Assembly (NCBI GenBank): GCA_028277745.1 | Contig: JANQFR010000068.1 | Coordinates: 110,676-174,675, forward strand | Length of the DNA: 64,000 nucleotides | Direction of reading: 5' to 3' | From: Phycisphaeraceae bacterium | GTDB lineage: Bacteria > Planctomycetota > Phycisphaerae > Phycisphaerales > Phycisphaeraceae | Shown here: positions 30,653 to 63,973 of the stretch, piece after piece | How the letters are laid out: every line of letters starts with the position of its first letter | Numbering within the stretch: the first letter of the stretch is position 1 | Notes under the pieces: generated by a model | What the model saw: only the letters and a program-made list of their open reading frames with translations | The model's database searches: none | What the model was told of the DNA's origin: nothing | Position numbers and translations under genes: made by a program

Positions 30653-31114
30653 GTGGATGGCGGCACGATACAGGTGGTTGACCCGGATGGCGTTACAACC
30701 AGCACCGGCGCTGTCAAAACGACTGATACCCAAAACAGCACATTGGTGACGCAGCGGGTGAGTTGGCAGTTAACATATCAAGATCAAAATCTGCCCTGGC
30801 GCGGCACCATCAAGGAAGAGATCACCGAATTGTCTATCAGCCAAAATGTGGATGACCCCAAGGGCGATACAATCGGCGCCGCTTTTACGGACGGCGTGTC
30901 TTGGGAGACAGACCCAGATGGGTCGTTTGATGAAACTCACGTTTCAAATTTTCCCGACCCTCTCCCAAATGCAAATAAGTATCACTCTGTAGGCAATCAC
31001 CAAAAGTTTAAGAACATGGAGGATGGGGGCAACGGGTTCGGCGCCACCTTCGAAACATATCACTGGGTGGATGATGCGGGCGCCGGCGGCGCTGACCATA
31101 AAAAGAAGGAGTGA
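30653..31114 (+). CDS. Hypothetical protein (low-GC islet), weak GTG start
   Basis: 153-aa ORF at about 50% GC, Asp/Thr-rich, AT-rich upstream region; coupled (GTGA overlap) to the next ORF. Confidence 0.35.
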   Translation: MDGGTIQVVDPDGVTTSTGAVKTTDTQNSTLVTQRVSWQLTYQDQNLPWRGTIKEEITELSISQNVDDPKGDTIGAAFTDGVSWETDPDGSFDETHVSNFPDPLPNANKYHSVGNHQKFKNMEDGGNGFGATFETYHWVDDAGAGGADHKKKE

Positions 31115-47193: not shown

Positions 47194-47200
47194 TTTGACG

Positions 47201-50200: not shown

Positions 50201-50542
50201 CTCAACTTTATGCGCGGCGTGAGCGAGTCAGAAGACATGACCGTCACCGCGATGCAGCCGCGCGAGGCGATCGCCGAGTCGGTCCGCACCCGAATCCGCC
50301 CGATTTTCATGACCACCTGCACCAGCGTCTTCGGCATGCTGCCGCTCGTTCTGATGCCCGGCGCGGGCAGCGAACTCTACAAGGGGCTCGGCAGCGTGGT
50401 GGTGGGCGGGCTCATCGTCTCGACGCTTTTTACACTTGTCGTCGTCCCCCTGCTGTTCAGCGTGGTGCTCGACATCAAGGCCTGGCTCTTCGGGGCTCTG
50501 GGGTGGCGGATGCCCGAGGCCCGCGCTACGGCCGGGATCTGA
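47201..50542 (+). CDS. Efflux RND transporter permease subunit (AcrB/HAE family)
   Basis: 1113 aa, 12-TM architecture with large periplasmic loops, a conserved TM4 region (AGMAFAVGMVVDNAIVVIENI) and its duplicated partner (LGFVILVGIVVNNAILIV). Confidence 0.9.
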   Translation: MDLIRFSINNPVKVAVGVLLVILFGLISVYTIPIQLVPDVDEPIITVQTEWTGRSPQEIEKDIIEEQEDKLKSLANLKKMVATASQGQANIELEFYIGTDISRALQEVSDKLREVPDYPDDVDEPVIEAADGASENAIAWVILDSTDPDYDIQSLYDFADKRIKPRLERVSGLSEVNVYGGREREVHVRLDPGKVAHRGITFNELANALSNDNTNVSAGDLVDGRLDVRIRTVGQYDALDQIANTVVRHDDGDGPIRVKDLGDVVLTLEKRRSFVRANGKPALAINAIRETGANVITAMEGFKEGIADINQNILPYYENDRYGLRMRQVYDETVYIYDAISLVQTNLWIGGVLAVCVLLLFLRSIRPTVIVALAIPVSVVGTFVVMTAAGRNVNVISLAGMAFAVGMVVDNAIVVIENIDRHLKHGKTPREAAYAATKEVWGAILASTLTTIAVFVPVLTIEEEAGQLFFDISLAICAAVTLSLIVSVSVIPSASARWLRQPVAAPSQLRKQLVGLFGLIPLFKAFGQGYANLIHRLTAPTALRFMSRLAIVAVFTIVSLGLSYSLMPPASYLPAGNQNLIFGIMLTPPAYNIEQAQFIGERIEHGVRPYWEVDTIEEATALGPVVNFFTGETYPRVPAIKNYFYVSFDGTIFMGAQSIDDELVKPLAPILSNSMMAIPGSFGFAMQRSIFGRGLSGTNGIDIEITGSDLDRVRGAAEVLYMALTGTYGFMNVQPDPLNFNLSGPELQFKIDQVKAKDMGIDTAAIGAGIRALVDGLVIGDYRLEGENIDLLLTRHPEYNLSVDELRSVPVTVFEPGGARGVVPISEIGTFVETTAPQQIKRIELLRAISFTVTPPGSVPLEAAQDDIMQTVAGLREAGAIPPDVAVAPAGTADKLRDVRRALLGHWTGFNLESIFSLITSRFFLALLITFLLMAALFESFIYPLVIMFTVPLATVGGFLGLALMHAYDPTQQLDTLTMLGFVILVGIVVNNAILIVHQALNFMRGVSESEDMTVTAMQPREAIAESVRTRIRPIFMTTCTSVFGMLPLVLMPGAGSELYKGLGSVVVGGLIVSTLFTLVVVPLLFSVVLDIKAWLFGALGWRMPEARATAGI

Positions 50543-50735: not shown

Positions 50736-51164
50736 ATGACATACCACGACAACGCCACCGCCTCGCTTCAAGACGCCCCCGAGGCGGACAAGACGTATTT
50801 CACCCTTGAACACGCCAACCGCGCTTTGCCTTACGTTCGGCGCATTGTGGATGACATTATGGCCGTCTATCGCGACGTCGTTGCCCTGCGCCGTCGGATG
50901 GAAACCGATGAGTCGGATGGGAGCGGCGTCGAGCGGCAATACCAAGAAGCGATCGATCGATTGGGCGAACTGGTCGATGAGGTTCAGGCCGTCGGCGTCG
51001 AGCTCAAAGATTTTGAACGCGGATTGGTCGATTTCCCCGCGCTGGCGGATGACCGGGAGGTCATGCTTTGCTGGCGAGCTGGGGAAGAGCACGTGAGCCA
51101 CTGGCACGAGGTCGACGCCGGGTACGCCGGCCGTCAACCGACTGACTCGCTTGGGCGGGCGTAA
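50736..51164 (+). CDS. Conserved hypothetical protein (DUF2203-like)
   Basis: SD gggagg before the ATG; 142-aa acidic protein; FTLEHANRALPYVRRIV...LKDFERGLVDFP resembles DUF2203. Confidence 0.45.
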   Translation: MTYHDNATASLQDAPEADKTYFTLEHANRALPYVRRIVDDIMAVYRDVVALRRRMETDESDGSGVERQYQEAIDRLGELVDEVQAVGVELKDFERGLVDFPALADDREVMLCWRAGEEHVSHWHEVDAGYAGRQPTDSLGRA

Positions 51165-51202: not shown

Positions 51203-51226
51203 AGCCCCGCATGCGGGGCTTAGGGG
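51203..51226. terminator. Palindrome D (CCCCGCATGCGGGG + CTTAGGGG) between convergent genes; candidate bidirectional terminator
   Basis: 14-bp perfect palindrome; the 16-mer ccgcatgcggggctta is shared with 12225-12242. Confidence 0.45.
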
Positions 51227-51272: not shown

Positions 51273-53117
51273 CTACTGATGCGGTGTTGATTCGAGTTCC
51301 CGCAGTTCACGGCGCCACGCTTCGCGCTGCGCTTCGTCGATGCCGGGCTCCGGCAATAGAGACCGTCTGGTGCAGTTCACCAGGGCCTGAAGCGTCTGAT
51401 ATCGCCGTGCGGCGCCGATGTCTGCGGGCAGCAGGTCGTCGACGATCGTTTTGAGTTCATCTTCCCGCAAAGGTCTGTTTTTGATGGTTGATGCGGCTCG
51501 CAGCCGCGAACGCAACGCGGCGTATCCCGCAGCGGAATATCCTTCTGTCATCACACCGATCCGTTCCACCGCCTCGGGGCTCAACGTGTCGGTGGATTGA
51601 CCGATCGCCCATTTCACAAACTCGAGCCGATCCTCGCCTTCCGGGTCCAACACCGGGATGATCAGGTCGCCGACACGTCCCGGGCGGCGGATATCGGGGC
51701 TCAGCCGCTCGATGCGTGCGGTCATCAGCAGCCAGACCACCTTCCCCCGTAGTTTCGGGTCGCTCATCATCTGCTGCACCTTGCCGGTCAGCCGTCGTTC
51801 CGTCGCGTGGGCGTCCGGCCCAACCCCGCCGAACTGCGTGTCCGCCTCGTCGACAAACAGGATCACTTTGTCGAGCGCTTCAAGCATGCGTCGTAGTCGT
51901 TCAAAGATGACATCGGTCTGGCCGAAATACTGGCTGCGGATGTTTTTCAGCACCAGCACGGGCAGTCCGAGCGATCCGGCGACGGCTTCGAAGATGAACG
52001 TTTTCCCGGCGCCGATCGGCCCCGCGACGGCGGCGCCCGGCAACGCGGATTCATCTTCCGCTTTGACCCGTGGAATGAATTCGTCTTGGAGAAAGCGTTT
52101 CAGCCCGCTGTAGCCCACGACATCCTGCAACGTGTGTGCCGGTTTCTTGAACTCCACCACACCGGGCCCGACCTGGGACGTGATGAAAGTCTCGACATGC
52201 TCGATGGCGGCGTCGGCCGTGACCGCTTTGTTTGTATGCGCCGCCTCCATCAGCACCTGGCGTAACGCATGGATCGATAGGCCCGCGGTGGATTTGGCGA
52301 GTTCTTCGATACTGCATGAAAGCGATGGTTGGGGGCGTTGATGACGCAGGAACCAGTCGACGTAATGCCGGCGGGTCGCCGCATCAGGCGATGGCGCTTC
52401 CACGGTTAACACCTGCGGCAGCCGCGTAATCCGAGGATGCACCTGGCTCTCGGATTCGGCCAGAAGCACCACGCTGTCTTCGCCGTTGCAGAAAGCCGGA
52501 TCGCTGAACCAGTCCTGCATCACCGACACCCGGTGGCGGTCCGCTACCGGCAGCCGCGTGATCTCTCCGTCTCCCGCGGGGACGAGCATGTCGGCCGCTT
52601 CGATAAAAATCATCAGCCGAAAGCGTTTGGCGCTGCGGGAGCAGAGCGTCACCTGACGAAGAAACTCCAGCGCGACCGTGGGCCGGCCGATCGCGTCACG
52701 CAACGACTCATCGAAGCTGTTCTCGGCCTCGGCTTTCCGGCTCGCCGCGGCTTGATCGCTTAAGCCTCTCAGGACCAGGGTGTCAAGTTCTACGCCCGTT
52801 TTCCAAGCCACCCAGGCATGACGGACCTTTTGGGCGTCTCCGTCGTCAATAAACCGTATGGGGCCATTGAGTTCATAGACAATCCGGACAAGGTTGTCGA
52901 CGTTGCAGCGGGCGATCAAATAGTGCAGCAAGGGCTGATAGGAGCCGTCAAAGGGATCGGCCCCGCCGTCGTCATCTTCGAGTTGTGAGGTCCGGTTGGG
53001 CGTGTAGAAGAGGTCGTGCACGTCGCCGGCAACAAGCAGACTCCTTGATTGGCCGCTGTTGAATACGCGGGCCAATCGTCTGAAGAAAGCGTAGCTTGGG
53101 GCCGGGGGAGTGCTCAT
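51273..53117 (-). CDS. Classic-clade AAA ATPase with a 330-aa unknown N-terminal domain
   Basis: Walker A GPIGAGKT, Walker B ILFVDEAD, second region of homology LLMTARIERLSPDIRRPGRVGDLIIPVLDPE; start 3 nt after the PspA-like stop. Confidence 0.8.
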   Translation of the reverse strand: MSTPPAPSYAFFRRLARVFNSGQSRSLLVAGDVHDLFYTPNRTSQLEDDDGGADPFDGSYQPLLHYLIARCNVDNLVRIVYELNGPIRFIDDGDAQKVRHAWVAWKTGVELDTLVLRGLSDQAAASRKAEAENSFDESLRDAIGRPTVALEFLRQVTLCSRSAKRFRLMIFIEAADMLVPAGDGEITRLPVADRHRVSVMQDWFSDPAFCNGEDSVVLLAESESQVHPRITRLPQVLTVEAPSPDAATRRHYVDWFLRHQRPQPSLSCSIEELAKSTAGLSIHALRQVLMEAAHTNKAVTADAAIEHVETFITSQVGPGVVEFKKPAHTLQDVVGYSGLKRFLQDEFIPRVKAEDESALPGAAVAGPIGAGKTFIFEAVAGSLGLPVLVLKNIRSQYFGQTDVIFERLRRMLEALDKVILFVDEADTQFGGVGPDAHATERRLTGKVQQMMSDPKLRGKVVWLLMTARIERLSPDIRRPGRVGDLIIPVLDPEGEDRLEFVKWAIGQSTDTLSPEAVERIGVMTEGYSAAGYAALRSRLRAASTIKNRPLREDELKTIVDDLLPADIGAARRYQTLQALVNCTRRSLLPEPGIDEAQREAWRRELRELESTPHQ

Positions 53118-53120
53118 GCA

Positions 53121-53945
53121 TCATTCCGGCAGTTTCGCGCCGCCCCCATCAGGGGAATCGCCGTTTTCTCGATCCGATTCCCCCGCCAGTCCTATCAACC
53201 GATCAAACTCATCGTTCGCGAGGCTCTTCTGTGCGTAGTCCAGGAACTCCGCTTCCTGCGCCTTGGTGTCAGAGCCGGCCAGTTCTTTGCTGACGCGCGC
53301 CTTGGCCTTCATCTCATCACGCAATTGGCGCATATCCGCCAATTCGCGGGATGTACGGTCCTGGCTGATGCCCGCCAACATGTCGTTGATCTCTTGCTCC
53401 TCCTTGGCGGTGATCATCTCCGCGACCGCGGTCGCCTGTTCTTCTCGCAATGTCTCAATGTCCTGAAGCATCTGCTGGAGTTGAATCTTGTGGCCCTTGA
53501 TGGATTCGTCCATCTCGGTGACTTCCTGCTCAAGTTCTACGATTCGATTGCCTTTCTCTTCGATCTTGGCGGTGAATCCATTGAAAGCCACCAGGCATTT
53601 CTGGTAATCTTCATTGGATTTGATCGTCTCCATGCCAACCCCCGACGTCTTGAGTTCGCCAATGACGGTCCGGGCTTTCGCCGCCGCCCCTTCTTTCAAT
53701 TGTTCGAGCCGGTTGACTTCATCGGTCTCCGCCTTGATTTTGCCCATCTTGTTTTCGTGTTGAACGATGAGCCTGGCGATGGCGTCTTTGAATTGCTGGA
53801 TGCTCTTGCGTTTTTCCTCAATAACGTTGTCGTAGGTTGCGTTGACGACGTGCGGGTTTGTGCTGAGCGTACGTCTGGCGGCGTCGATCCGGCCGGTGAC
53901 CATGTAGCCGAGAGCTCTGAAATATCGACTTACAGCTTTAAACAT
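53121..53945 (-). CDS. PspA/IM30 family protein (ESCRT-III superfamily, phage-shock/Vipp1-like)
   Basis: PspA-like N-terminal amphipathic segment MFKAVSRYFRALGYMVTGRIDAARRTLSTNP, then about 230 aa of heptad-repeat coiled coil with an acidic tail; start at ATG 53945. Confidence 0.6.
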   Translation of the reverse strand: MFKAVSRYFRALGYMVTGRIDAARRTLSTNPHVVNATYDNVIEEKRKSIQQFKDAIARLIVQHENKMGKIKAETDEVNRLEQLKEGAAAKARTVIGELKTSGVGMETIKSNEDYQKCLVAFNGFTAKIEEKGNRIVELEQEVTEMDESIKGHKIQLQQMLQDIETLREEQATAVAEMITAKEEQEINDMLAGISQDRTSRELADMRQLRDEMKAKARVSKELAGSDTKAQEAEFLDYAQKSLANDEFDRLIGLAGESDRENGDSPDGGGAKLPE

Positions 53946-53989
53946 GTTGGGCTCCTTTACCGTGATCCTAAATCCCCGAGCCGGATTTG

Positions 53990-56900
53990 TCACTCTTCGG
54001 GCGATCGGCTTCGTTCAAGCTTGGCGATCATCGTGTCATACTTGGTGACCATATCCTGGAGAGTTGCGCCAAGCTGTTTGAGCTGCCCGTCTTGATCAGC
54101 GGTGATCCGTGTCAGGGGTTCAAGCCAGCCTTTCATGAGGTTGAACTGTTCTTTCATGACATAAAGAAATGTTGACGGCACTTTATTGACGACCCGGATC
54201 TCATGCGGCGGGCTTTCTTGACCGGATTTGGGCGGTGGGACGGGGCGGCTTGCCGCCGCGGCGCGGATCGCATCGATTGTTTCTTCATCGAGTTTCGCCT
54301 CGACCACGCGTGAGGCGTCAATCGCTTCCCCGATCGATGCGAGGGCGGTGTTGAGCCTTGTGACCTGTTCCATGAGCGGAACGAGTTCTGTCTGATCTTT
54401 AGCGGATAGTCCTGTGCTGATCGCCTGATGGATCTCGTCAAGCCCCTCGTTGAACGACGCAAGTTGTACAAGCACTTGCGCCGTTCGGTCGTCGCCGTCG
54501 ATCCCGGCCAAATGGTTGTTTCGGCGAAATGTCTTTTTGATTTCTTCCCATCGGCCTTGTTCCTGATCGTTGATGATGCCGATCAATTCCTTGAATTTGA
54601 GGAGGTTCGCCTCCGCGCCGGTGGTCAGCGTTTGGGCGTCTTGTTCGTAGCTGGACAGGATCAGGGTCTGGAGCTCATCATCGTTCATGACGGACGATAC
54701 TTTCTCAGCAATCCGATTCATATTGCGATACGAACCCTGTAACCCAAAAGCCGGTTCAGTTCGATATTTGGTTTCCATGCCCGCCGAACGAATGTATTCC
54801 TGATTAACCGCCAGAATTACGTCACGCACACGCATGAGCTTGCGCATCACACCGACCATTTCATTGATTTCGTCAGATGAATAATTGCCTTCAAAATCGA
54901 TGTCATCGCGAGAGTTTGTTTCGGCGATTTTGATGATGCTATAGACGTCTTCCTGACTTCGGCTGGCGAGTTGGTTCAATGCAGGGTTGCTGGTCAGCGC
55001 ATTTTCCAAGTAGCTCATCACAAATGCGTCACGGTGGTCGCCGATGATATCGCCGAGGTTGTAGGTGTCGGCCCGATTGGCAAGCATATCGGGGATGTGA
55101 AATTTCTCTCCGGATTCGGTGTATGGGTTGCCCGCCATGACGACGGCGACTTTGCGGCCGCGGAAATCATACGTTCTCGGCCTGCCTTTATAGACCCCTT
55201 CGATCTTCCGTTGCGCATCGCAGAGGCTGATGAATTTCTGAAGAAATTCACTGCTGCAATGCTGGATGTCATCAACGTAGATCATAACGTTGTCGCCCAT
55301 CTCGAAAGCTAGATTGAGTTTGTTTAACTCATCCCGGGCGGCGGCATTGGAGGCTTCCTGAGGGTCGAGCGATGTCACGGAGTGTCCGATCGCGGGGCCG
55401 TTGATTTTCATGAAAATCACCCCCAGTCGATTGGCGATGTACTCCATGAGCGTGGTTTTTCCATACCCCGGCGGCGAGATGAGCAGCAGCATGCCCATCC
55501 GGTCGGTGCGGGTGTTTTCGCCTGCAGAACCCATCTGTTTGGCGAGGTTGTCGCCGATGAGCGGGAGAAAAACCTTGTCGATCAGCTTGTTTCGGACAAA
55601 CGAGGTCAGCACGCGAGGCTTGAACTCGTCGAGCCTCATCTCCTCACGAGCCTGCTCGGCGAGCATGCGTTTCCTGTGGGTGTATTGTTCAAAAGCCGGC
55701 GCCTGTAGCGTTACAAACCGATCAAGTCGATTTGTGAACTCGTTGTAATTTAATTCCAAAACACCGTCGATAATGCGTTGGTGTGAACCGGTCAGATTCT
55801 CAATGGTTCGGGCGACGCTGGCCTGTACAATGCGGGAATGATCGAACGGTTTATCGAGGAGCATGAGCGCGGCTTCACTGAGATAGCCTTCATGCTTGGA
55901 CGGATCGATTTCATTGGTTTCAAGAAAAGCACGGAGCCAATCACAAGCAAGTAAAAACTGCGTAACCGGTTGATCAGCGACGTTATCAAGTGAACGTTGG
56001 AACTTCTGAACGGCGCGGAATGTTTTTAGCCGACCCAGGAACGCATCGTACAGCGCGGCGGCTTCCGGACTGGCGACGAAACGGTTGTTTCCTGTTGTCA
56101 ATTCATGAAACAGATAGACCCCAGCGTCTTTGGTTTTTGCAGGATTAAACAGTTGGTGAGTGTCATTGAAAGCGGTGATATCATGGCGGATATCGTCGAT
56201 GTAACGGCCTTGTTCGTCATTCTCAGGAAAATAACCTGAGATCGCGCCGTAGCCGCATAGCCTCAACGTCATCAAGCGCTTGTCATCGTCTTCAGGACGG
56301 GTCCGCCAATAGAGGCCGGCCATGGCTCGTGATTCACTGGGGTACCGCAGCAGGCCGATACTTCCGTCTAACTCCATTAAGGCTTTGAGAATTTTGGAGC
56401 TGTCGTGGTCGTGAACGCCTTTAATATACCCTTCACTGTAGCGCGAACTCATGAACTTCTGAGTGTGCGCAAGCAGTGCGTTGTCATCAAGATCCGCCAA
56501 ATGGACAGCGTTGCTGTCGATTGACATCAGGTAGGCGAGATATTCGCTTCGATAGACATCAGGATTCTCAGATACGATCTCTTGTGTCCAGATGCTGTGA
56601 TCAGAGTTGAGCGCCTCATCTTCGATGGGCTCGAAGAACCGTGTCCCGCTGATGTGAAGATTCATTCTGTCATCACGGAGCACCATCGTGAGGTCCACCG
56701 CTTGCGTATTAACGCTAAATACATGTTTGCCGAAGCGGATGGTGTTAGGTCCATCGACCATCAACTCCTGACGGTCTTTGAGTTGCCGTACGGCATCCTC
56801 CCGGATGGTTTTGATCTGCGAGTGAATATCATCGACTTTGACGGTGTCTTCAAGATCGGAGAGCTCATCAATAAGGTCCCGGAGTTTTTCAACCATCAAG

Positions 56901-59296
56901 TCTGACGCGAAATAGGAATTGATGGCATTGACCGTATCCAGGCCGTCGACCCGGCTTTTAATGCCGCGTAAAATCCTGTCTGCGGCGGCGGCTAACGCGG
57001 TAGATCGTTTGTTGCGCTTTTCGGTGATCTGTAGTTTACGGTTTTCGAAAGCGTTGTAGATCTCATCACGTTTTTCGGTTAACTGCAGCACGAAGTCATC
57101 AAACTCCGCGAATCGTCCTTCGACCTCTTCGATCTGAACCATCATCTTGGTCAGGTATTGGTCTGTTTTTTCCGCGGTGTCGCAGAGGTCAAGGTAATTG
57201 ATGACGGATTGATTGAGCAGTTTGAGTTGGCTGTTGAACTCGGCGATGCCCTCAGAGCGGCCGAGGTCTTGGTTTTTGTTGCGGAGGCGGCTGCGCGCGG
57301 CATTCAACTCGCTGAAAATGATCGAGACGGAGTCGAGGATCGCAGTGCGCTGCGTAGCGTCATCGATTTTGAGATTGCTGACGATGTCAATCAGCATCTC
57401 CAGTTCGTTCGATGTCGAAGTAATCTGAGTATCGAGCTCGCTTGCGTCCGCCGCTTTCGTAAGGCTGTCGATCCTGTCCGCCTGTTGCTTAACCGCGTGC
57501 TCATAAGGCGACAGCGCGTCGGGCTGCAGCAGGAAATCTACGGTTCTACGACTCAAGCTTTCCGTCTGATCCTGAACGGAAACCTCCAGAGCATTGACCT
57601 GGGTTTCGTCTATGTAACGCAAGTCACGTAAACTGATAATCTTTCCCCGAATTTCACGGAGTGATGCCAGCGACTCCACAAAGGAATGAATGCTCTCGTA
57701 AATCCGGCTTGCATTGCGATTTATTAATTCGCTGGCGGCGGCTGACGTTTCTTTGAGGTGCGCCTCTGTCGCACGCCGGACGCGCGTGACTTTTTCAAAC
57801 TCCCCCACCGCAGCCAGGCCGGCGTCCTTGATCTGGGTGAGTGTTTCCGCCAGATTGAAACACTCGGAGTGTCCGAGCCAGAAAAAAGAATCCAGCAGGT
57901 CGCTGGTCGCTTTTACAATGTCAACATACAGATCGGCATAGCGTTCTTCGCGTCGGATCAGATTGAGTATGCCGACGCATTCCGCCATACCGCGGACGAT
58001 CTCTTTGTTTCCGATTTTAGATAGATAGGTATCAGACTGTTTTTCTGGGACATAATTCGGGCCGACGTAAGGCGTTTGCCAGATCTGGATGGCGTGGTGT
58101 TTCTGTGGCTCTTCACCGGCTTTGAAGAAGATCAATTCGCCATTGGAAAAGAAACTGTAGCCATTGCAAAGGGTTGGCGTGTCGATCTGCTGCTCGATCA
58201 GGTTGTAGGAAAGCAGCACGTAGACGCCATGCGTCCGGTTATAGAAAACATACAGAAAATCTTCGCCGTTCGGCGCCGCGATGCGGCGCTCAAACACCAT
58301 AGATTCGGTCAGGTCCTGAAGAGTCGGGAAGGTTTGAGTGCGTCCGTCAGCAAGGTAATAGCCATCAGCGAAGATCAGGCCCTGGTCGTCGGGAAGCAGG
58401 ATGCATGCGTGTTCGATAGCATCTAATCGAACGACATTCTGAAGTTTTTCATTAAAGATGAAATAACGATAGTTTGATTCCTGGTAAGGCCTGATGCGTA
58501 GCAGGATAAGATGGCCATGCGCGATGTATGTAATGTCCGCGTCATCTAAGGTCTGATCCGGATCATCGACGGGCTCGGCATAGATCCCGGCGCCGGCGGC
58601 GGTGTTGTTTTCAACCTTGATCGTTAGATCGCCGCCTACGGTTTCGACGAAAACACGGTCCTGGATCGATGCATGGGGATGTTGACCGGTGACGAAATCA
58701 TCACGGGTGACGCGGACCCAATCGAGTTCGTGCTGATCGGGGTAGCGGACTTCGTGGTCAGATCGGTTGTCGATGTAGGTTAGGCGGCCATCTTTTGATA
58801 ACCACTTGAAAGCCTTAAAGTCATCGGGGTGATTGCCGACATGAAATTTCATGTAGATATGCGGCCCGCTGCGGAAGAATTTAGCGAAGGCCGTATTTTT
58901 ATAGAATCGGTAAAGGTCGCGAAAATCTTTTTTGAACCGTTCGTCACCGATGAGTTCGAGGGGCTCTTCATGGAAGGTTGAGCCGTCGAACCGGTAAACG
59001 GAAAAGACATCGGCGAGTTCGATCTCGGTGCGGAGCCCGAACTGGACGTTATATCCAAAGAGGAACCGGTCGCCGATCGGGACCATATCCCGGGGGACGC
59101 AGTTGTTGCTGGTGGTGACGCGTTCCGCACCGACCAGCTTGGTTTCGATCGATCCGAAGACGCTCATACGCGCTTCGTTAAGCTGATCGAGTCGAGACCT
59201 CAGTTCGCGGCCATGATCGGCGAGCCGTTTCTGGATGATCTCATAAGCGCCCTGTTCAAGCTGGGCTTCGGGTTGTTTTGCAGCTTGGTCTGGCAT
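53990..59296 (-). CDS. Giant (1768 aa) uncharacterized protein: N-terminal beta-rich domain, long central coiled coil, MoxR/AAA_5-like P-loop ATPase domain and helical C-terminal region
   Basis: Single uninterrupted ORF at about 51% GC; Walker A LLISPPGYGKTTL, Walker B-like VMIYVDDIQH, AAA_5-like RGRKVAVVMAGNPYTE; coiled-coil segment about residues 520-900. Confidence 0.75.
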   Translation of the reverse strand: MPDQAAKQPEAQLEQGAYEIIQKRLADHGRELRSRLDQLNEARMSVFGSIETKLVGAERVTTSNNCVPRDMVPIGDRFLFGYNVQFGLRTEIELADVFSVYRFDGSTFHEEPLELIGDERFKKDFRDLYRFYKNTAFAKFFRSGPHIYMKFHVGNHPDDFKAFKWLSKDGRLTYIDNRSDHEVRYPDQHELDWVRVTRDDFVTGQHPHASIQDRVFVETVGGDLTIKVENNTAAGAGIYAEPVDDPDQTLDDADITYIAHGHLILLRIRPYQESNYRYFIFNEKLQNVVRLDAIEHACILLPDDQGLIFADGYYLADGRTQTFPTLQDLTESMVFERRIAAPNGEDFLYVFYNRTHGVYVLLSYNLIEQQIDTPTLCNGYSFFSNGELIFFKAGEEPQKHHAIQIWQTPYVGPNYVPEKQSDTYLSKIGNKEIVRGMAECVGILNLIRREERYADLYVDIVKATSDLLDSFFWLGHSECFNLAETLTQIKDAGLAAVGEFEKVTRVRRATEAHLKETSAAASELINRNASRIYESIHSFVESLASLREIRGKIISLRDLRYIDETQVNALEVSVQDQTESLSRRTVDFLLQPDALSPYEHAVKQQADRIDSLTKAADASELDTQITSTSNELEMLIDIVSNLKIDDATQRTAILDSVSIIFSELNAARSRLRNKNQDLGRSEGIAEFNSQLKLLNQSVINYLDLCDTAEKTDQYLTKMMVQIEEVEGRFAEFDDFVLQLTEKRDEIYNAFENRKLQITEKRNKRSTALAAAADRILRGIKSRVDGLDTVNAINSYFASDLMVEKLRDLIDELSDLEDTVKVDDIHSQIKTIREDAVRQLKDRQELMVDGPNTIRFGKHVFSVNTQAVDLTMVLRDDRMNLHISGTRFFEPIEDEALNSDHSIWTQEIVSENPDVYRSEYLAYLMSIDSNAVHLADLDDNALLAHTQKFMSSRYSEGYIKGVHDHDSSKILKALMELDGSIGLLRYPSESRAMAGLYWRTRPEDDDKRLMTLRLCGYGAISGYFPENDEQGRYIDDIRHDITAFNDTHQLFNPAKTKDAGVYLFHELTTGNNRFVASPEAAALYDAFLGRLKTFRAVQKFQRSLDNVADQPVTQFLLACDWLRAFLETNEIDPSKHEGYLSEAALMLLDKPFDHSRIVQASVARTIENLTGSHQRIIDGVLELNYNEFTNRLDRFVTLQAPAFEQYTHRKRMLAEQAREEMRLDEFKPRVLTSFVRNKLIDKVFLPLIGDNLAKQMGSAGENTRTDRMGMLLLISPPGYGKTTLMEYIANRLGVIFMKINGPAIGHSVTSLDPQEASNAAARDELNKLNLAFEMGDNVMIYVDDIQHCSSEFLQKFISLCDAQRKIEGVYKGRPRTYDFRGRKVAVVMAGNPYTESGEKFHIPDMLANRADTYNLGDIIGDHRDAFVMSYLENALTSNPALNQLASRSQEDVYSIIKIAETNSRDDIDFEGNYSSDEINEMVGVMRKLMRVRDVILAVNQEYIRSAGMETKYRTEPAFGLQGSYRNMNRIAEKVSSVMNDDELQTLILSSYEQDAQTLTTGAEANLLKFKELIGIINDQEQGRWEEIKKTFRRNNHLAGIDGDDRTAQVLVQLASFNEGLDEIHQAISTGLSAKDQTELVPLMEQVTRLNTALASIGEAIDASRVVEAKLDEETIDAIRAAAASRPVPPPKSGQESPPHEIRVVNKVPSTFLYVMKEQFNLMKGWLEPLTRITADQDGQLKQLGATLQDMVTKYDTMIAKLERSRSPEE

Positions 59297-59339
59297 GCAA
59301 ATCTAGTATGAAAAAAACTGGTTCTGGTCCGGGAATAAA

Positions 59340-61442
59340 TCACTTGGCGCCGTCGAGAAGGCCGAGTTTGCCGACCTTCTTGTCCGCCAGGCCAGCGGAT
59401 TTGGCGGCGCCGAGCAGGTTCTGCAATTCGGATTTAAGCATGTCGTCGCTGGAAAGACTGATCATCCGCGTGACCAGCGCCGCGACGGTCAGGTTCTTGG
59501 CGTCTTCCGCGTCGATGCCGAACTGCCCGACGAACTGTCGGACCTTACGCTGGAAGTACTCGGGCGAACCATTGAAGAAAGTCGACTTGATGTCGGAGAG
59601 CACCTCGGAGTTGCCGACCATGCGGTCGACTTGTTTGCCGGAGGTGATGGAGTTGATGATGCGGTCGAAGAACTGGCCGTCGCCGCCGACGATATCGATG
59701 TTCGCCTGCTTGAGGGCCTCGGCCAGCACCGCGGCCTGCTCGGCCGCGATCTTCGCCTTGATCTCGATCTCCGCCAGCTCCACCGCTTTTTCTTTGTCGA
59801 GATGGAGCTTGAACTCTTCGTGCTCCTTGCCCACGCCGTCGAGCTTCTTCATGGCTTCGGCCTTGGCGGCGACGCCCTCGGCCTCGGCGGAGTAGTGCTG
59901 GTTCAACGCGCCCGCTTCGGCTTCGCCCCTCTTGGCGATCACATCGGCCTCGGCTTCGCCCTTCCTGGCGGTGACTTCCGCCTCGGCCGTGCCGTAGTTG
60001 CGCACGGCGCCGGCCTTGGCGTCCATCACTTCCGCCTCGGCCAAACCGGAGGCGGCGGTTTCGGCCTGGACCGCCTCGGCGAGCTTCATCTTGCCCAGGG
60101 CTTCCTTCTCCGCGGCCTGGCGCTGAGCCTCGGCCTCGATGAGGACCTCGTCGGCCTGGAACTTGGCGGCGGTCTTGCCCGCCTCGGCCGCCTTGACCTC
60201 CTTGATCAACGCTTCCTCGGCCAACGCCTCGGCGGCGGTGACCTGCACACCCTTTGCACGCGTCGCGGCCGCCAGCTCTTCGGTATCCTTGATGCGCTCC
60301 TGCTCCTCCACCACCGCCCGCTCGACGATGACGCGTTCGCGGATCACGTCCTGGATCTTCTTGCGCTCCACCTCGAGGGCTTTTTCCTTCTCGATCCGGG
60401 CCAGTTCGACCACGCGTTCGCGCTCGGTGGCTTCGAGATCACGTTCGCGCTGGACCCGCTCCTGCTCCACCGCGTGAGTGCGTAGCTTGGACTGTTCGGC
60501 CACAATAACCTGGCGGAGCTTGTTCTCTTCCTGGACACCCAGCTCTTCTTCGGTGGAGATGCGGGCGCGCTCTGATTTAAGTTTTTCCTCTTCGCGAGCT
60601 TTGTCAGCTTGGGCCTGCTCACGTACGGTGATCTCGGCGATCTCGCGCTTCTGCCGCTGCTCGGCTTCGGCCTGCTGTTTCTCCAATTCAAGAATCGCTT
60701 CACGGGCCTCGACGTCCTGCTTGGTGATCGTCTTCTCTTTTTCGCGATTGATGTCGTTGGCGAAGACCTGTTCCCTGGCGGTCAGGTCGGTGATCTTCTT
60801 GATGCCCTCGGCGTCGAGGATGTTGCTGGGGTCAAGCTTGGTGACGTCAGTCTGTTCGAGGTAATCGATGGCGGCGTCGTCCAGGACGTAACCGTTCAGG
60901 TCGGTGCCAAGATGGGCGAGGATTTCCTCTTTAAACTTTTCCCGTTCGGTGTATAGATCGGTGAAGTCAAATTTTTTACCAACGGTTTTGAGGGCTTCGG
61001 AGAACTTGGCGTCAAAGAGTTCGATCAGAGCAGCTTGATCGGATGCTCGCTTGCAACCAATGGACTGAGCGACTTGGAGGACATCTTTCGCCGAATTATT
61101 GACCCGGACAAAGAATGCAACTTTGATATCAGCACGAACATTATCTTTGCAGATCAATCCTTCAGATCCATGTCGATAAATTTCAATCCGTTTGACAGAG
61201 ATGTCCATGATCTCTTCACGGTGGAAAACGGGCCAGACTAAAGTGCCGCTGAAACTAACTTTTACTCCCGAACTGCCCCGCAAAGTGACCCCGGTTCTGA
61301 CCAGCGCCGTTCCCTGCTCAACTTTCCGGAAGCATTTCACAAAAGTAATGACAAAGACAAAAATGATCAGAAGGCCAAACAGGGCGGCTAACGCCCCCAG
61401 GATGCCTAGACTGTTAAGCAATGCGAGTGACGGCATGTACAT
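59340..61442 (-). CDS. Flotillin family protein (SPFH/band-7 domain plus extended Ala/Glu-rich coiled coil, YqiK-like)
   Basis: N-terminal TM helix, SPFH domain, about 350 aa of EA-repeat coiled coil (flotillin domain), C-terminal oligomerization region; 700 aa. Confidence 0.85.
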   Translation of the reverse strand: MYMPSLALLNSLGILGALAALFGLLIIFVFVITFVKCFRKVEQGTALVRTGVTLRGSSGVKVSFSGTLVWPVFHREEIMDISVKRIEIYRHGSEGLICKDNVRADIKVAFFVRVNNSAKDVLQVAQSIGCKRASDQAALIELFDAKFSEALKTVGKKFDFTDLYTEREKFKEEILAHLGTDLNGYVLDDAAIDYLEQTDVTKLDPSNILDAEGIKKITDLTAREQVFANDINREKEKTITKQDVEAREAILELEKQQAEAEQRQKREIAEITVREQAQADKAREEEKLKSERARISTEEELGVQEENKLRQVIVAEQSKLRTHAVEQERVQRERDLEATERERVVELARIEKEKALEVERKKIQDVIRERVIVERAVVEEQERIKDTEELAAATRAKGVQVTAAEALAEEALIKEVKAAEAGKTAAKFQADEVLIEAEAQRQAAEKEALGKMKLAEAVQAETAASGLAEAEVMDAKAGAVRNYGTAEAEVTARKGEAEADVIAKRGEAEAGALNQHYSAEAEGVAAKAEAMKKLDGVGKEHEEFKLHLDKEKAVELAEIEIKAKIAAEQAAVLAEALKQANIDIVGGDGQFFDRIINSITSGKQVDRMVGNSEVLSDIKSTFFNGSPEYFQRKVRQFVGQFGIDAEDAKNLTVAALVTRMISLSSDDMLKSELQNLLGAAKSAGLADKKVGKLGLLDGAK

Positions 61443-61460
61443 TGAAATAACCTCCGGGTT

Positions 61461-62120
61461 TCAAAAACCCCTGATGTAATAGACGTTCCGCGTATCGTCC
61501 TCGGATACGATGACGGCTTCGTCGCCTTTTTTTAAGGTTGATTTGGAATCGCTGGTCCGAGCGTTGAGCAGCAGCGGGGCGCCGTCGGTGTCGACTTCGA
61601 CCTGACCGCGGCGATGGTCGACCGTCAGAGAAACCACGCGGCACCGAGAGCCCACGATATGGATCATTGCCTCGGCTTCTTCCTGGTCCTTGATCTTCTT
61701 GTACAAGATCTTGGCCGGATGCGTGAGGATTTTGGTCACAAAAACAGCTCCGACGATCATGAGCGGCAGGGCGATGAGTTGCGTTAGCACCGCGAGGCTG
61801 CCCGCGATCAGGTAAGTCCCGACGCTGATCGTCCACAGCGTCAGGACAAACACGCTCAGTAGGATCGTCACCGGCACGTAGCCGATGTTGAGGAACCGCA
61901 TCATCGAAACCCCGACCGACGCGTCGCCGATCGACGCGTCGATATCGACGTCGGCGTCTACATCCACGTCCACGTCGGTGTCCACGTCAAAATCGAAGTC
62001 GAGGGACTCGAGGTCGAGGGCGCCGAGGATGACGAACAGCCAATAGATCACGCACAGGCCGAGGATGACGGTCAGCGTCAGGTTGACGGGTGCAAGGCAG
62101 GCTTCGATGAACTCGGTCAT
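61461..62120 (-). CDS. YqiJ/NfeD-like membrane protein with C-terminal OB-fold
   Basis: Two to three TM helices, an acidic DxD repeat loop (DFDFDVDTDVDVDVDADVDID), C-terminal beta-barrel-like VGSRCRVVSLTVDHRRGQVEVDTDGAPLLLNARTSDSKSTLKKGDEAVIVSEDDTRNVYYI; ATG at 62120, with a possible GTG at 62144. Confidence 0.6.
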   Translation of the reverse strand: MTEFIEACLAPVNLTLTVILGLCVIYWLFVILGALDLESLDFDFDVDTDVDVDVDADVDIDASIGDASVGVSMMRFLNIGYVPVTILLSVFVLTLWTISVGTYLIAGSLAVLTQLIALPLMIVGAVFVTKILTHPAKILYKKIKDQEEAEAMIHIVGSRCRVVSLTVDHRRGQVEVDTDGAPLLLNARTSDSKSTLKKGDEAVIVSEDDTRNVYYIRGF

Positions 62121-62257
62121 GGCGTTTGGCCCCCGATGGGTCACGCCAAGGATAGCGGCTTCCGAGGTGGCGTGGGTGGGAATCGGGCCCGGCCTTTCAA
62201 CGAAATTGGGACACCGAACAATCTGGTAACAGTCGGGGGAGTCGGTAGACTGTGGCG

Positions 62258-63973
62258 ATGCTGAGCGAACTGCACATCTCCAATCTCGCGGTGATCGAAG
62301 ACGTGAAGATCGAATTGGCCGGGGGGCTGAATGTGTTCACGGGGCAGACCGGAGCGGGCAAGAGCCTGGTGCTGGGGGCGTTCGAGGTCCTGCTGGGGCT
62401 GCGCAGTGCGGGCGACATGCTCCGGCCGGGCGCGGAGGAGGGGCGGGTGTCGGGGATGTTTGAGGTCGTGGGCGAGCGGAACGTCGTGGCGTTGAGCGCG
62501 ATCGCCGACCAGTCGGTGCAGCCGGGCGAACCGCTGCTGGTGACGCGGAAGCTGTTCGCGTCGGGCCGGTCGAGCTTCTCGATCAACGGCCAGCCGGCCA
62601 CGTCGGGCATGGTCAAGCGGCTGGGGCAGGCGCTGGTGGACATCCATGGCCAGCACGACCACCAGTACCTCCTGCGGCCGTCCAACCAGCTGGAGATCCT
62701 CGACGACTTTGCGGGCTGCTCCGAACCGCGGCGAGCGTTCGCCCAGGCGCATCACGACCTGCGCGAACGCCGGGAGCGTCGGGAGACGCTGATGGCGTCA
62801 CGGACGCTGCGGACCCAGCAGTTGGATTTGTACGTCTTTCAGGCCGAGGAGATCGATTCGGCGGGCCTGACGGAGGGTGAGTTCGCCGAGTTGCAGGCCC
62901 GGCACGCGGTCCTGTCGAATGTGACGAAAATCCAGGCCCAGGCGAGCGGGGTGCAGGCGGCGTTATACGAGACGGAAGGCTCGGTCGTGGCCCGGCTTGA
63001 GATGATGACGCATGTCCTGCAGGGCCTGACCGAGTTGGATGAGACGCTGAGCCCGCTTGCCGAGCAGGTGCGCGGGGCGACGCTCGGGCTCCAGGAAGCC
63101 GCGTTTGAGCTGACGCGCTATCTCGACCGGCTCGAGGCGGATCCGGGCGAGCTGGCGGAGGTGGAAGACCGGCTGAACCTGTTGAACCGCCTCGTGCAGA
63201 AATACGGCGACGCCACGCCCGGCGAAGACCCCGTCGCTTCCGTGCTGGCCTACCGCGAACAGATCGGCGCCGAGATCGCGTCGTTGCGCGAGCAGGATCA
63301 CGACCTGTCCCAGATCGACCGGGAGATCGCCGAGCTCGAAGCGCGCCTGGCGGAGATCGGCACGTCGCTGACCACGGCCCGGGCCAAGGCGGCGAAAAAG
63401 CTCAAGCCGTTGGTTGAGGCGCAGCTCCAGGAGCTGGGGATGGCGGACGCCAAGTTCACGTTTGACATCCAGCCCAGCGAAGACCCCGGCGCCTCGGGGA
63501 TGGACACGGTCGAAATCGTCGTCCAGACCAACCCGGGCCAGGCGTTCCGGCCCCTGCGTCAGATCGCCAGCGGCGGCGAGCTGTCGCGGGTGATGCTCGC
63601 GATCAAGTCGATCCTGGCGGGCCCCGACCGGATCAGCGTGCTGGTGTTCGACGAGGTCGACGCCAACATCGGGGGCCGACTGGGCAGCGTCATCGGCCGG
63701 AAGCTGAGGGAGCTGGCGTGTGCGCCGCGGACGGGCGGGCGCCAGGTGTTGTGTATCACGCACCTGCCGCAGATCGCGGCGTTCGGGGACCGTCACCTGC
63801 GGATCACCAAGCGGGTGGTCGGCCGGGGCGGGCGGAAGCAGGCCCGGACCGAGGTGACGCGGCTGGAAGGCAAAGCCCGGATCGAAGAATTGGCGGAGAT
63901 GATGGCGGGCAAGCAGGTCACCGGCGTCAGCCGCAAGCAGGCGGAGGAGCTGATCGCCGCGGCGACGGCTTGA
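62258..63973 (+). CDS. recN: DNA repair protein RecN
   Basis: MLSELHISNLAVIEDV...FTGQTGAGKSL Walker A, long coiled coil, C-terminal signature ASGGELSRVMLAIK and Walker B VLVFDEVDANIGG. Confidence 0.9.
   Translation: MLSELHISNLAVIEDVKIELAGGLNVFTGQTGAGKSLVLGAFEVLLGLRSAGDMLRPGAEEGRVSGMFEVVGERNVVALSAIADQSVQPGEPLLVTRKLFASGRSSFSINGQPATSGMVKRLGQALVDIHGQHDHQYLLRPSNQLEILDDFAGCSEPRRAFAQAHHDLRERRERRETLMASRTLRTQQLDLYVFQAEEIDSAGLTEGEFAELQARHAVLSNVTKIQAQASGVQAALYETEGSVVARLEMMTHVLQGLTELDETLSPLAEQVRGATLGLQEAAFELTRYLDRLEADPGELAEVEDRLNLLNRLVQKYGDATPGEDPVASVLAYREQIGAEIASLREQDHDLSQIDREIAELEARLAEIGTSLTTARAKAAKKLKPLVEAQLQELGMADAKFTFDIQPSEDPGASGMDTVEIVVQTNPGQAFRPLRQIASGGELSRVMLAIKSILAGPDRISVLVFDEVDANIGGRLGSVIGRKLRELACAPRTGGRQVLCITHLPQIAAFGDRHLRITKRVVGRGGRKQARTEVTRLEGKARIEELAEMMAGKQVTGVSRKQAEELIAAATA

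Follow-up and report, generated by a model that had tools for sequence, protein, structure and literature searches.

A five-gene operon in a Phycisphaeraceae bacterium that joins a flotillin triad to a PspA-like protein and a tandem AAA ATPase

What can be the function of a flotillin, a relative of PspA and two large ATPases when they are encoded side by side in a single bacterial operon? This question is raised by a stretch of 64,000 nucleotides from a Phycisphaeraceae bacterium (assembly GCA_028277745.1, contig JANQFR010000068.1, positions 110,676 to 174,675), termed here the window, of which positions 51273-62144 are occupied by five closely packed open reading frames (ORFs) on the minus strand. 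In operon order, they encode a YqiJ/NfeD-type protein, a flotillin, a giant protein with a DUF3686 domain, a PspA-like protein and a tandem AAA ATPase, termed AAA2. An earlier reading of the letters alone (the sequence-only reading) had seen in this block an undescribed, self-contained and horizontally acquired membrane-remodelling module, the last two genes of which were reminiscent of an ESCRT-III/Vps4 pair. The analysis reported here modifies this view. Sequence comparisons identify the block as a lineage-specific fusion, in Phycisphaeraceae, of two separable modules, namely, a triad consisting of the YqiJ-type, flotillin and giant DUF3686 genes and a dyad consisting of the PspA-like and AAA2 genes. 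The reading that we favour, at a probability of roughly 55%, is that this operon, probably laterally acquired, fuses the two modules into one working unit, in which AAA2 would turn over a membrane-bound polymer of the PspA-like protein on a flotillin scaffold.

The first gene of the operon is the YqiJ/NfeD-type gene (61461-62144; 227 amino acids from a GTG at 62144, or 219 from an ATG at 62120), followed by the flotillin/SPFH gene (59340-61442; 700 amino acids), the giant DUF3686 gene (53990-59296; 1768 amino acids), the PspA-like gene (53121-53945; 274 amino acids from an ATG at 53945, or 290 if a GTG at 53993 opened the ORF 53993-53121) and the AAA2 gene (51273-53117; 614 amino acids), all on the minus strand. 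On identical public contigs, independent gene calls place the start of the PspA-like gene at ATG 53945 and that of the YqiJ-type gene at ATG 62120; since gene callers choose the latter start, the 219-residue form of the YqiJ-type protein is the more likely one. An exact look-up of the 290-residue PspA-like product in public records gave no match, and the 274-residue form is on record. With the ATG starts, the spacers from the YqiJ-type gene to AAA2 measure 18, 43, 44 and 3 nucleotides, within the range of 3-44 nucleotides given before. The five family assignments made from the letters alone were also essentially right, although a direct Pfam match was not enough to establish three of them, those of the flotillin, the PspA-like protein and the giant protein's AAA+ module.

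The identity of the PspA-like protein is seen best with a profile of 64 diverse members of its family, which is a discrete one (581 clusters at E<=1e-3 in a profile search of 1.84 billion representatives). The eight best matches of this profile in the PDB were Vipp1/PspA chains (6zvr, 8qbv, 8qbw, 7o3w; E=4.8e-9 to 1.6e-7), and the register to Vipp1 was consistent, with positions 133-250 aligned to 99-213, including the ELAGxD motif, and positions 39-97 aligned to 30-88. A shallow profile of 34 sequences with at least 54% identity reached Vipp1 at E=0.05. PspA_IM30 (PF04012) is by far the commonest Pfam match among the family members and was obtained for 17 of 34 close relatives (E<=0.05) and for 18 of the 64 diverse members (E<=0.01), with a best value of E=3.4e-7. 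The AlphaFold2 (AF2) model of the window protein (predicted local distance difference test, pLDDT, 79) has helices at residues 3-16, 19-28, 31-100 and 112-241 and a hairpin longer than that of PspA. A Foldseek search with this model had at its top the Vipp1 structures 6zvr, 8qbw and 7o3w over about 250 columns (E=3e-3 to 4e-2), with other coiled coils intermixed. Residues 2-16 form an amphipathic helix (hydrophobic moment μH 0.67) and an invariant proline opens α1, and the predicted fold comprises the ESCRT-III elements, namely, an amphipathic α0, a long helical α1/α2-3 hairpin and further helices. Because the diverse profile matches solved Vipp1 and PspA structures in register, and because Vipp1 is the top fold match, the protein is assigned, on sequence and model, as a divergent member to the ESCRT-III superfamily's PspA/Vipp1 branch, and is not an unrelated coiled coil.

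At its C terminus this protein carries a tail of the form DEFDxLIGL - variable acidic linker - KLPE. The tail is conserved in the 80 Planctomycetota loci with a PspA-like gene that were surveyed with one genome per species, and essentially all members end in [KRQ][LI]PE, sometimes with one additional residue. The exceptions are two copies that end in KLRE (L020:10001-10819 and L021:10001-10819), in which the otherwise invariant proline is lost; both belong to clusters without an adjacent AAA2 gene.

AAA2 contains two AAA copies. Residues 1-330 (52128-53117, minus strand) correspond to a degenerate copy that has no GK[ST] P-loop and carries IEAAD at the place of Walker B, and its homology with the C-terminal AAA half is supported by hhalign (residues 142-318, probability 90%, E=1.5e-6). 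Residues 331-614 (51273-52127, minus strand) form an intact AAA domain of the classic clade (Pfam AAA, E=7e-15), as the sequence-only reading had held, with the Walker A motif GPIGAGKT, the pore loop QYFGQT, the Walker B motif FVDEAD, the second region of homology (SRH) RRPGRVGD and a conserved C-terminal helix RRYQTLQALxNCTRRSLLP. Across 36 homologues, conservation is 90% or higher for the Walker A and B motifs, the aromatic pore loop and the arginines of the SRH. Matches in NCBIfam were CDC48 (1.2e-15) and CdvC (5e-8), and the nearest solved structures were those of Afg2, VAT and p97 (E~1e-22), ahead of Vps4 (E=1e-9). No MIT domain match was obtained in Pfam or NCBIfam, and the two AAA copies set the protein apart from the single-AAA, meiotic/Vps4 clade. 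Given the missing MIT domain, the degenerate N-terminal copy and the closer similarity to Afg2/VAT/p97, AAA2 is classed from its sequence as a Vps4 analogue, not a Vps4 orthologue. The earlier comparison with ESCRT-III and Vps4 is thus reasonable as a functional analogy and fails as a statement of orthology.

Evidence for a link between the two proteins comes from their genomic distribution. Close homologues are all from Planctomycetota, mostly from Phycisphaeraceae, and an AAA2 gene was found on the same strand and within 10 kb of the PspA-like gene in 54 of the 67 evaluable loci. This linkage persists where the identity of the PspA-like protein falls to 27-28%. At distant loci AAA2 remains 46-48% identical over its full length and the PspA-like protein 27-29% (for example, L088:17289-19124 and L089:18250-19902). 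It is this deep conservation of the dyad, together with the intact pore loops and the essentially invariant tail, that suggests that AAA2 extracts the PspA-like protein by its tail. One of the distant dyad operons (L088:6025-8160; PspA-like protein 27% identical) also encodes a 711-residue protein with MVP_shoulder and Vault_3 matches, with a Peptidase_M50 gene further on. The fold of the vault shoulder domain is SPFH-like and, if this holds here, the L088 protein would be another cage-type protein beside this PspA family.

The dyad occurs in two settings. In Group B, which includes Phycisphaerae and Planctomycetia, it is part of a conserved operon of about nine genes that differs from that of the window and encodes a secreted protein of ~615 amino acids, a VWA protein, a 515-residue OmpA-domain protein, a transmembrane (TM) coiled-coil protein of ~245 amino acids, the PspA-like protein, a protein of ~365 amino acids, an ABC permease and an ABC ATPase, with AAA2 at either end (L022, L025, L029, L067, L068, L074-L077, L081 and others; for example, L081:2666-13832). 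The ~365-residue protein is solute-binding-like, probably a binding protein, and gave faint Phosphonate-bd/NMT1 matches. The ~245-residue TM coiled-coil protein gave no signal against the PspA-like profile in hhalign (probability 4%), and its identity with the 'TM+Snf7' protein of Ravi et al. was not confirmed. The VWA, OmpA and ABC-transporter proteins could be the real clients of AAA2 if control runs in the opposite direction, that is, if the PspA-like protein regulates or adapts AAA2 and holds it inactive until membrane stress titrates the PspA-like protein away, the freed enzyme then acting on envelope or transporter complexes or on the flotillin cage. The model for this would be PspA and PspF, the best-studied pair of a PspA and an AAA+ protein (PMC7619361), and the far better conservation of AAA2 than of its partner (46-48% versus 27%) fits an enzyme with several clients. 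However, AAA2 has no Pfam or NCBIfam match to a σ54-activator domain of the PspF type or to a DNA-binding domain, it shows the features of a classic-clade unfoldase (aromatic pore loop, RPGR-type SRH), and the invariant tail at the extreme C terminus of the PspA-like protein resembles a degron or engagement tag. We consider such reversed control possible, if doubtful, and prefer the extraction of the PspA-like protein by AAA2.

The second setting is that of the window. Group A comprises 19 Phycisphaeraceae loci (L003-L021) with the order YqiJ-flotillin-giant-PspA-like-AAA2. All five genes are present in at least 10 of these loci, a further 7 are truncated by the ends of their contigs, and the cluster lacks an AAA2 gene in 2 (L020, L021); in the genomes of the latter two there is a second PspA-like locus that does bear AAA2 (L029, L025). 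The co-occurrence of the five genes is thus a feature of a lineage, but the claim that they form a self-contained module does not hold, as the block is a fusion of two modules that also exist apart. Indeed, each module lacks the other in most of the genomes examined, and this, the loss of AAA2 from the cluster in two Group A genomes and the presence, in some Group A loci, of an extra ORF of ~330 amino acids or a spacer of ~1.2 kb between the giant and PspA-like genes (44 nucleotides in the window) could be taken to mean that the modules came to be adjacent in one clade by a neutral rearrangement and are not functionally coupled, the triad and the dyad each working on its own as in other genomes. 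Set against this are the conservation of order and strand in 19 species-level genomes, the proteins of which have diverged to 56-72% identity, and the finding that the captured copies group in clades of their own: each of the two sets of Group A proteins, PspA-like and AAA2, is monophyletic in neighbour-joining trees, which points to a single ancestral capture of the dyad by the triad followed by co-divergence. Furthermore, in Bacteroidota and Proteobacteria the triad has been joined independently by other PspA families (PMC11237479), and the genomes OY771506 and OY763327 retain, besides the PspA-like copy of the cluster, a canonical dyad locus elsewhere, implying specialisation. A neutral origin of the adjacency is therefore judged unlikely. 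The extra ORF encodes ~315-330 amino acids without a Pfam match and is located at L003:8912-9853, L009:8916-9914 and L017:8890-9879. No second, canonical dyad locus lies within the 64-kb window, and tblastn searches of 72,556 plasmid records with the PspA-like protein and the N-terminal domain of AAA2 gave no match.

The triad, in turn, occurs without the dyad and in the same gene order in Hymenobacter, on Pseudomonas fluorescens pQBR103, in Proteus mirabilis, in Streptomyces and in Deinococcus. In Hymenobacter and on pQBR103 it is joined by a different PspA (Tir/YjfI and PspA/IM30 genes), indicating that the triad has recruited a partner of the ESCRT-III superfamily more than once, in agreement with the description by Ravi et al. 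(PMC11237479). At two of these loci the neighbouring genes are of note: on Deinococcus grandis pDEGR-1 (L087:2447-4991) two paired IS4/5-type transposase genes and a gene for a GGDEF diguanylate cyclase are located directly upstream of the triad, and on the Hymenobacter plasmid (L083:2610-3395) a gene for a LexA-family regulator is divergent from the Tir-PspA-DUF1449-flotillin-DUF3686 cluster.

The first two proteins of the triad were recognized largely through homologues. The YqiJ-type protein matched Pfam YqiJ_N just below the threshold (E=1.6e-4, 22.2 bits, cut-off 23 bits) and is 31% identical (E=2e-27) to a Hymenobacter protein, named by NCBI as 'DUF1449 family', that is encoded at the equivalent gene position; the positional homologue in Deinococcus gave a weak NfeD match (E=0.0024). 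It has about three TM segments (hydropathy peaks at residues 12-48, 82-117 and 110-142), a loop rich in Asp, DFDFDVDTDVDVDVDADVDID, and a putative NfeD-like β domain at the C terminus, and its gene adjoins that of the flotillin, as is expected for YqiJ/NfeD-SPFH pairs. The flotillin consists of an N-terminal TM anchor (residues 3-42), a probable SPFH region (~34-190), a long Glu/Ala coiled coil and a C-terminal domain. It had no Pfam match in a direct scan and no sequence match in the PDB, its match to NCBIfam FloT was weak (E=1.6e-3), and Band_7 was matched by only one of 15 homologues, the SPFH protein of pQBR103. To this 'SPFH domain-containing protein', residues 33-183 of which match Band_7 (42.5 bits, cut-off 23.6 bits, E=9e-11), the window flotillin is 39% identical over residues 34-615 (E=1e-114), and it is homologous to the SPFH/Band_7 family by this transitivity. 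More than 8000 homologues were found, many of them named 'flotillin family protein' or YqiK. Residues ~230-560 are rich in Glu and Ala with an 11-residue periodicity, as expected of a Glu/Ala coiled coil, and are encoded in part by 33-nucleotide periodic DNA repeats at 59851-60190; a profile match to the coiled-coil region of QmcA had E=0.014.

The third protein of the triad combines several regions in its 1768 residues. Residues 31-472 (57881-59206, minus strand) are a DUF3686 domain (PF12458, E=1e-186, profile positions 1-448 of 448), a type of region that is described as β-propeller repeats in the operon class reported by Ravi et al. (PMC11237479). A DUF7902 domain (PF25472, E=3e-25) is present at residues 593-676 (57269-57520, minus strand) within the coiled-coil middle part, and an AAA+ module at residues ~1268-1460 (54917-55495, minus strand) was delimited by AF2, Foldseek and motif conservation, with Pfam matches to AAA (1270-1394) and AAA_5 (23.3 bits, cut-off 22 bits). 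The protein thus has the full-length PF12458 domain and the C-terminal AAA module that characterize its family. No TM segment was detected in a hydropathy analysis, indicating a soluble protein. Its AAA+ module contains the Walker A motif SPPGYGKTT, the Walker B motif YVDDIQH, a sensor-1 asparagine, an arginine finger in ANRAD and a lid. None of these catalytic motifs varies among 36 aligned sequences drawn from several phyla, some of them named as Bacteroidota, Verrucomicrobiota, Lentisphaeraceae and Kiritimatiellia, and the C-terminal 620 residues of these sequences show 54-68% identity. In the AF2 model of residues 1150-1768 (pLDDT 77), the AAA+ core has a β-hairpin at 1364-1377, before sensor 1, and is followed by a helical region up to residue 1768. 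Foldseek ranked NorQ (E=4e-6; TM-score, normalised to the target, 0.52-0.59) and CbbQ first, closely followed by RuvB and MCM. On its modelled fold the module belongs with the MoxR family, with NorQ and CbbQ as the closest members, which makes the earlier label 'MoxR/AAA_5-like' a fair one. A VWA partner was not found: there is no VWA match in any of the five proteins, nor among the annotated neighbours of triad loci elsewhere.

The possibility that the giant ORF is a fusion artefact or a pseudogene was rejected, since the DUF3686 match runs from end to end and colinear homologues exist in several phyla; they measure ~1600-1900 amino acids in 17 Phycisphaeraceae loci, Hymenobacter, Pseudomonas, Proteus, Streptomyces and Deinococcus. 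Homologues of 35-60% identity are found in Planctomycetota, Bacteroidota, Actinomycetota, Deinococcota and Gammaproteobacteria, and their genes are always directly downstream of a flotillin gene. Public records label them 'DNA repair ATPase'. According to this name, the giant protein would be a DNA repair enzyme and the operon part of a DNA damage response, for which one may cite that Pfam calls DUF3686 an 'ATPase involved in DNA repair' and PGAP names the homologues accordingly, that the operon is divergent from recN and the Hymenobacter cluster from a LexA-family gene, and that the AAA+ fold also resembles RuvB and MCM. However, no DNA-binding, nuclease or helicase domain was found in Pfam and NCBIfam scans, the gene is always linked to those of the membrane proteins YqiJ and flotillin and often to a PspA gene, recN is adjacent in no related locus, the likeness to RuvB and MCM is one shared within the AAA+ superclade, with NorQ scoring higher, and no literature was found to back the name. 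A role in DNA repair is already disfavoured and in our judgement highly improbable, and the database name is probably wrong.

The base composition of the block bears on its origin. GC content falls to 0.50-0.55 in two stretches, 53.0-59.5 kb and 60.5-62 kb, and is 0.60-0.65 in the rest of the block, as compared to 0.65-0.69 outside, which agrees with the lower-GC block noted from the letters. The rise within the flotillin gene traces to the Ala/Glu repeat region. The five genes individually have a GC content of 0.52-0.61 and a GC content at third codon positions (GC3) of 0.62-0.80, and correctly framed neighbour genes have a GC3 of 0.82-0.95 (recN, 0.90; AcrB gene, 0.86), the value for host genes being about 0.86-0.93. 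GC is low at codon positions 1 and 2 as well, and the amino acid composition contributes to the low GC of the cluster. An explanation by Lys/Glu-rich coiled-coil composition alone was rejected, as GC3 is depressed too and the orthologous clusters are not: in 19 related loci, GC3 of the cluster equals that of the flanks. Moreover, none of the window flanks recN, DUF2203 and AcrB borders the cluster in any related locus. Low GC3 here, host-like GC3 in the orthologous clusters and flanks that are not conserved together make it likely that the cluster was recently acquired laterally from a relative of lower GC content, and the horizontal acquisition proposed previously is supported and sharpened by the GC3 values and the host-like orthologous clusters. 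Two additional low-GC patches, which may be further foreign DNA, were seen in the window: two adjacent plus-strand ORFs of 153 and 383 amino acids (30653-32262; GC 0.53-0.56) and an ORF of 377 amino acids (37205-38338; GC 0.44), all without a Pfam match.

Atypical composition, a location that is not conserved and likely lateral transfer are also what one would expect of a defence island, and the block may be read as a membrane-acting anti-phage or abortive-infection island, the two ATPases of which are sensors or effectors. Homologues of the triad are carried by large plasmids, namely, pQBR103 and those of Hymenobacter, Streptomyces and Deinococcus, and the AAA domains gave weak matches to PADLOC IetA (E=6e-7 to 2e-4) and NCBIfam IteA (E=4.6e-5). 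Yet the PADLOC matches are no better than generic P-loop or coiled-coil similarity, none of the five products is a nuclease, protease, toxin or pore-forming effector, the dyad is a chromosomal, phylum-wide and stable operon with transporter and envelope genes, and the orthologous five-gene clusters have host-like composition. We regard a role in defence as very unlikely. Membership of a known defence system was rejected after a search of the five proteins against PADLOC-DB 2.0, which gave only IetA, at the values stated, and LmuB/JetC at E~1e-3.

As for the edges of the block, recN (62252-63973, plus strand) is divergent on the upstream side, as described before. The intergenic region shared with it (62145-62251) presumably holds the operon promoter; no promoter-like site was scored in this region by a promoter scan. 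Downstream, between AAA2 and a convergent DUF2203 gene, there is a GC-rich perfect palindrome of 18 nucleotides, AGCCCCGCATGCGGGGCT, read directly from the sequence at 51204-51221. The palindrome named in the sequence-only reading is thus present, but it is followed by no T-run, which is why the terminator scan did not list it, and it is retained as a candidate bidirectional terminator that marks the downstream edge of the block. The order recN-cluster-DUF2203-AcrB is present on two separately assembled contigs (SRR20820733, SRR20820739), so the junctions did not arise by misassembly. The DUF2203 gene (50736-51164; GC3 0.71) may itself belong to the low-GC patch, and beyond it is a pair of genes for resistance-nodulation-division (RND) efflux, a HlyD-type membrane-fusion protein (45988-47193) and an AcrB-type pump (47165-50542).

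From this gene content, with its homologies, its intact catalytic motifs and its conserved and co-diverging linkage, we infer the following mechanism. The flotillin and its NfeD partner would form a membrane-anchored cage or microdomain, and this scaffold would recruit or pattern the PspA-like protein, the amphipathic N-terminal helix of which would bind the membrane. The PspA-like protein would then polymerise on stressed or curved membrane. A link between an SPFH scaffold and an ESCRT-III-type polymer is suggested by the repeated and independent joining of the triad to PspA genes and by the precedent of B. subtilis. The AAA2 hexamer would engage the C-terminal tail of the PspA-like protein (EFDxLIGL - linker - LPE) and thread it by its YFG pore loops, and the extraction of subunits may in this way turn over the polymer, which would make AAA2 a functional analogue of Vps4 acting on ESCRT-III. 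The giant MoxR-like ATPase, whose role is the least constrained, might be a chaperone that helps to assemble or remodel the flotillin scaffold.

A number of observations weigh against this mechanism or the classifications on which it builds. The PspA-like protein itself matches Pfam PspA_IM30 with 16.5 bits (E=0.0065), below the cut-off of 33.9 bits, and hhalign comparisons of the shallow 34-sequence profile with a single Hymenobacter PspA/IM30 and an approximate E. coli PspA gave probabilities below 1%; as the comparison of a profile with a single coiled-coil sequence has little power, the diverse 64-member profile was taken as the deciding test. AAA2 lacks a MIT domain, and the PspA-like protein, unlike ESCRT-III proteins, has no canonical MIT-interacting motif (MIM) in its tail, so that the recognition step is conjectural. 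The loss of the tail proline where AAA2 is absent concerns one lineage with two closely related genomes and is a hint only. In E. coli, PspA is the regulator of the AAA+ protein PspF and not a substrate of it, which means that control could run the other way here, and the usual context of the dyad, among VWA, OmpA-domain and ABC-transporter genes, implies that its native role may be in the envelope or in transport and not with flotillin. In the giant protein, Walker B is of the form hhhhDD, with Asp for the usual Glu, in all 36 aligned sequences. With respect to lateral acquisition, there is no tRNA gene in the window, there are no convincing flanking direct repeats, and a scan of flanking ORFs turned up neither an integrase nor a transposase. 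In the literature we found no description of the fusion of both halves, no experimental work on either half and nothing on DUF3686 or on a link of 'DNA repair ATPase' with flotillin or PspA.

The disassembly and regulation of bacterial polymers of the ESCRT-III superfamily, such as those of PspA and Vipp1, is an open question that could be addressed with a compact candidate pair, a 274-residue PspA/Vipp1 homologue with an invariant tail and a 614-residue tandem AAA protein with intact unfoldase motifs. This pair is conserved and co-diverging across the whole phylum and is amenable to in vitro assays of polymer assembly and disassembly. The fusion adds an independent case of the recruitment of an ESCRT-III-superfamily protein to the triad, thereby strengthening the proposed link between SPFH cages and polymers, and provides a genetic handle on the DUF3686 family, which is widespread in Bacteroidota, Actinomycetota, Deinococcota and Proteobacteria, including Proteus and Vibrio. 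The value of these findings is limited by the fact that both modules were predicted before (PMC11237479) and by the inferential nature of the mechanism throughout. Planctomycetota exhibit elaborate membrane invaginations, and a bolder and tentative proposal is that the PspA-like protein and AAA2 are a true bacterial counterpart of ESCRT-III and Vps4, coupled to the flotillin cage and the giant ATPase as a membrane machine with two motors; such a machine would build, remodel or pinch off membrane microdomains. We would not expect this stronger version to be correct; if it were, it would contradict reviews according to which bacterial ESCRT-III proteins lack a Vps4-like partner (PMC7619361, PMC10936438).

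Parts of the locus resemble several known systems. The AAA+ module of the giant protein is akin to the MoxR chaperones (NorQ/NorD, CbbQ/CbbO, RavA/ViaA) in that its modelled structure is closest to NorQ and CbbQ and has a β-hairpin before sensor 1, but it is embedded in a protein of 1768 residues with DUF3686 and a coiled coil, and its Walker B motif has DD instead of DE. The VWA partner typical of MoxR proteins is absent from the window operon, and the VWA protein of the canonical dyad operon goes with AAA2, not with the giant protein. As in E. coli yqiJK and B. subtilis yuaF-floT, an NfeD/YqiJ-type gene is directly upstream of a flotillin gene, although the window flotillin has a greater length (700 residues) and has diverged too far to be matched by the Band_7 model of Pfam. 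An SPFH protein is also linked with a PspA protein in B. subtilis pspA-ydjGHI. None of the yqiJK, yuaF-floT and pspA-ydjGHI loci is known to have a DUF3686 ATPase or an AAA partner for PspA. The SPFH protein YdjI is reported to recruit PspA to the membrane (PMC8581546, as cited in PMC10936438).

With the ESCRT-III/Vps4 systems of eukaryotes and their CdvB/CdvC equivalents in archaea, the dyad has in common that a gene of the ESCRT-III superfamily is next to that of a classic-clade AAA protein with threading pore loops, and that the conserved C-terminal tail of the polymer-forming protein is set off from the core by a variable acidic linker. The differences are that AAA2 has two AAA copies and no MIT domain and is closer to Cdc48, VAT and Afg2, and that the PspA-like protein is of the PspA/Vipp1 branch and not of the Snf7 branch. 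According to a 2025 review, a Vps4-like ATPase 'appears absent in bacteria' (PMC7619361), and Makarova et al. (2024) found systems of Vps4 and ESCRT-III confined to archaea and eukaryotes (PMC10936438). The archaeal 'Halo_adaptin' loci described in the latter study are similar in that a weakly PspA-like gene is directly upstream of a Cdc48-related AAA gene, termed Vps4-like, without MIT; this likeness is one of description, and these loci differ in their archaeal origin, in the double-psi β-barrel (VAT-type) N domain of the AAA protein and in their winged-helix and adaptin-like neighbours.

The closest precedents for both halves are found in the comparative genomics of Ravi et al. (2024), so that the system cannot be called undescribed. 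One of the operon classes given there combines PspA with YqiJ/YuaF, Band-7/flotillin and a 'β-propeller+coiled-coil+AAA ATPase' (PMC11237479). This class, itself a computational prediction, has the YqiJ/DUF1449, flotillin and DUF3686 genes in the same order as the window and a gene of the PspA superfamily in the operon, and the Hymenobacter triad proteins are 31%, 53% and 50% identical to the YqiJ-type protein, the flotillin and the giant protein of the window. It differs in that a YjfJ-type PspA/IM30 and a CesT/Tir (YjfI) chaperone are encoded upstream of the triad and in that there is no second ATPase, whereas the window has, downstream of the triad, a PspA-like protein of a different, planctomycete family with its own tandem AAA protein, and no CesT/Tir gene. 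Another arrangement in the same paper combines PspA with an 'inactive classical AAA + classical AAA', to which an ABC transporter and PBPB-OmpA are added in some cases. As documented in its Text S2.2 and Table S3 (AEY64320/1 from Clostridium; OGG56892.1 from Handelsmanbacteria), this dyad likewise pairs a PspA-like protein with a tandem AAA protein that has a dead first copy, and its context of ABC ATPase/permease, PBPB-OmpA and TM-Snf7 genes resembles the usual operon of the planctomycete dyad. Passages of PMC11237479 on this dyad do not mention Planctomycetes, and architecture and context suggest that the planctomycete dyad is orthologous to these examples. The dyad of the window differs in being located outside that context and attached to a flotillin triad; both halves were predicted earlier by comparative genomics, and it is their fusion that appears to be new.

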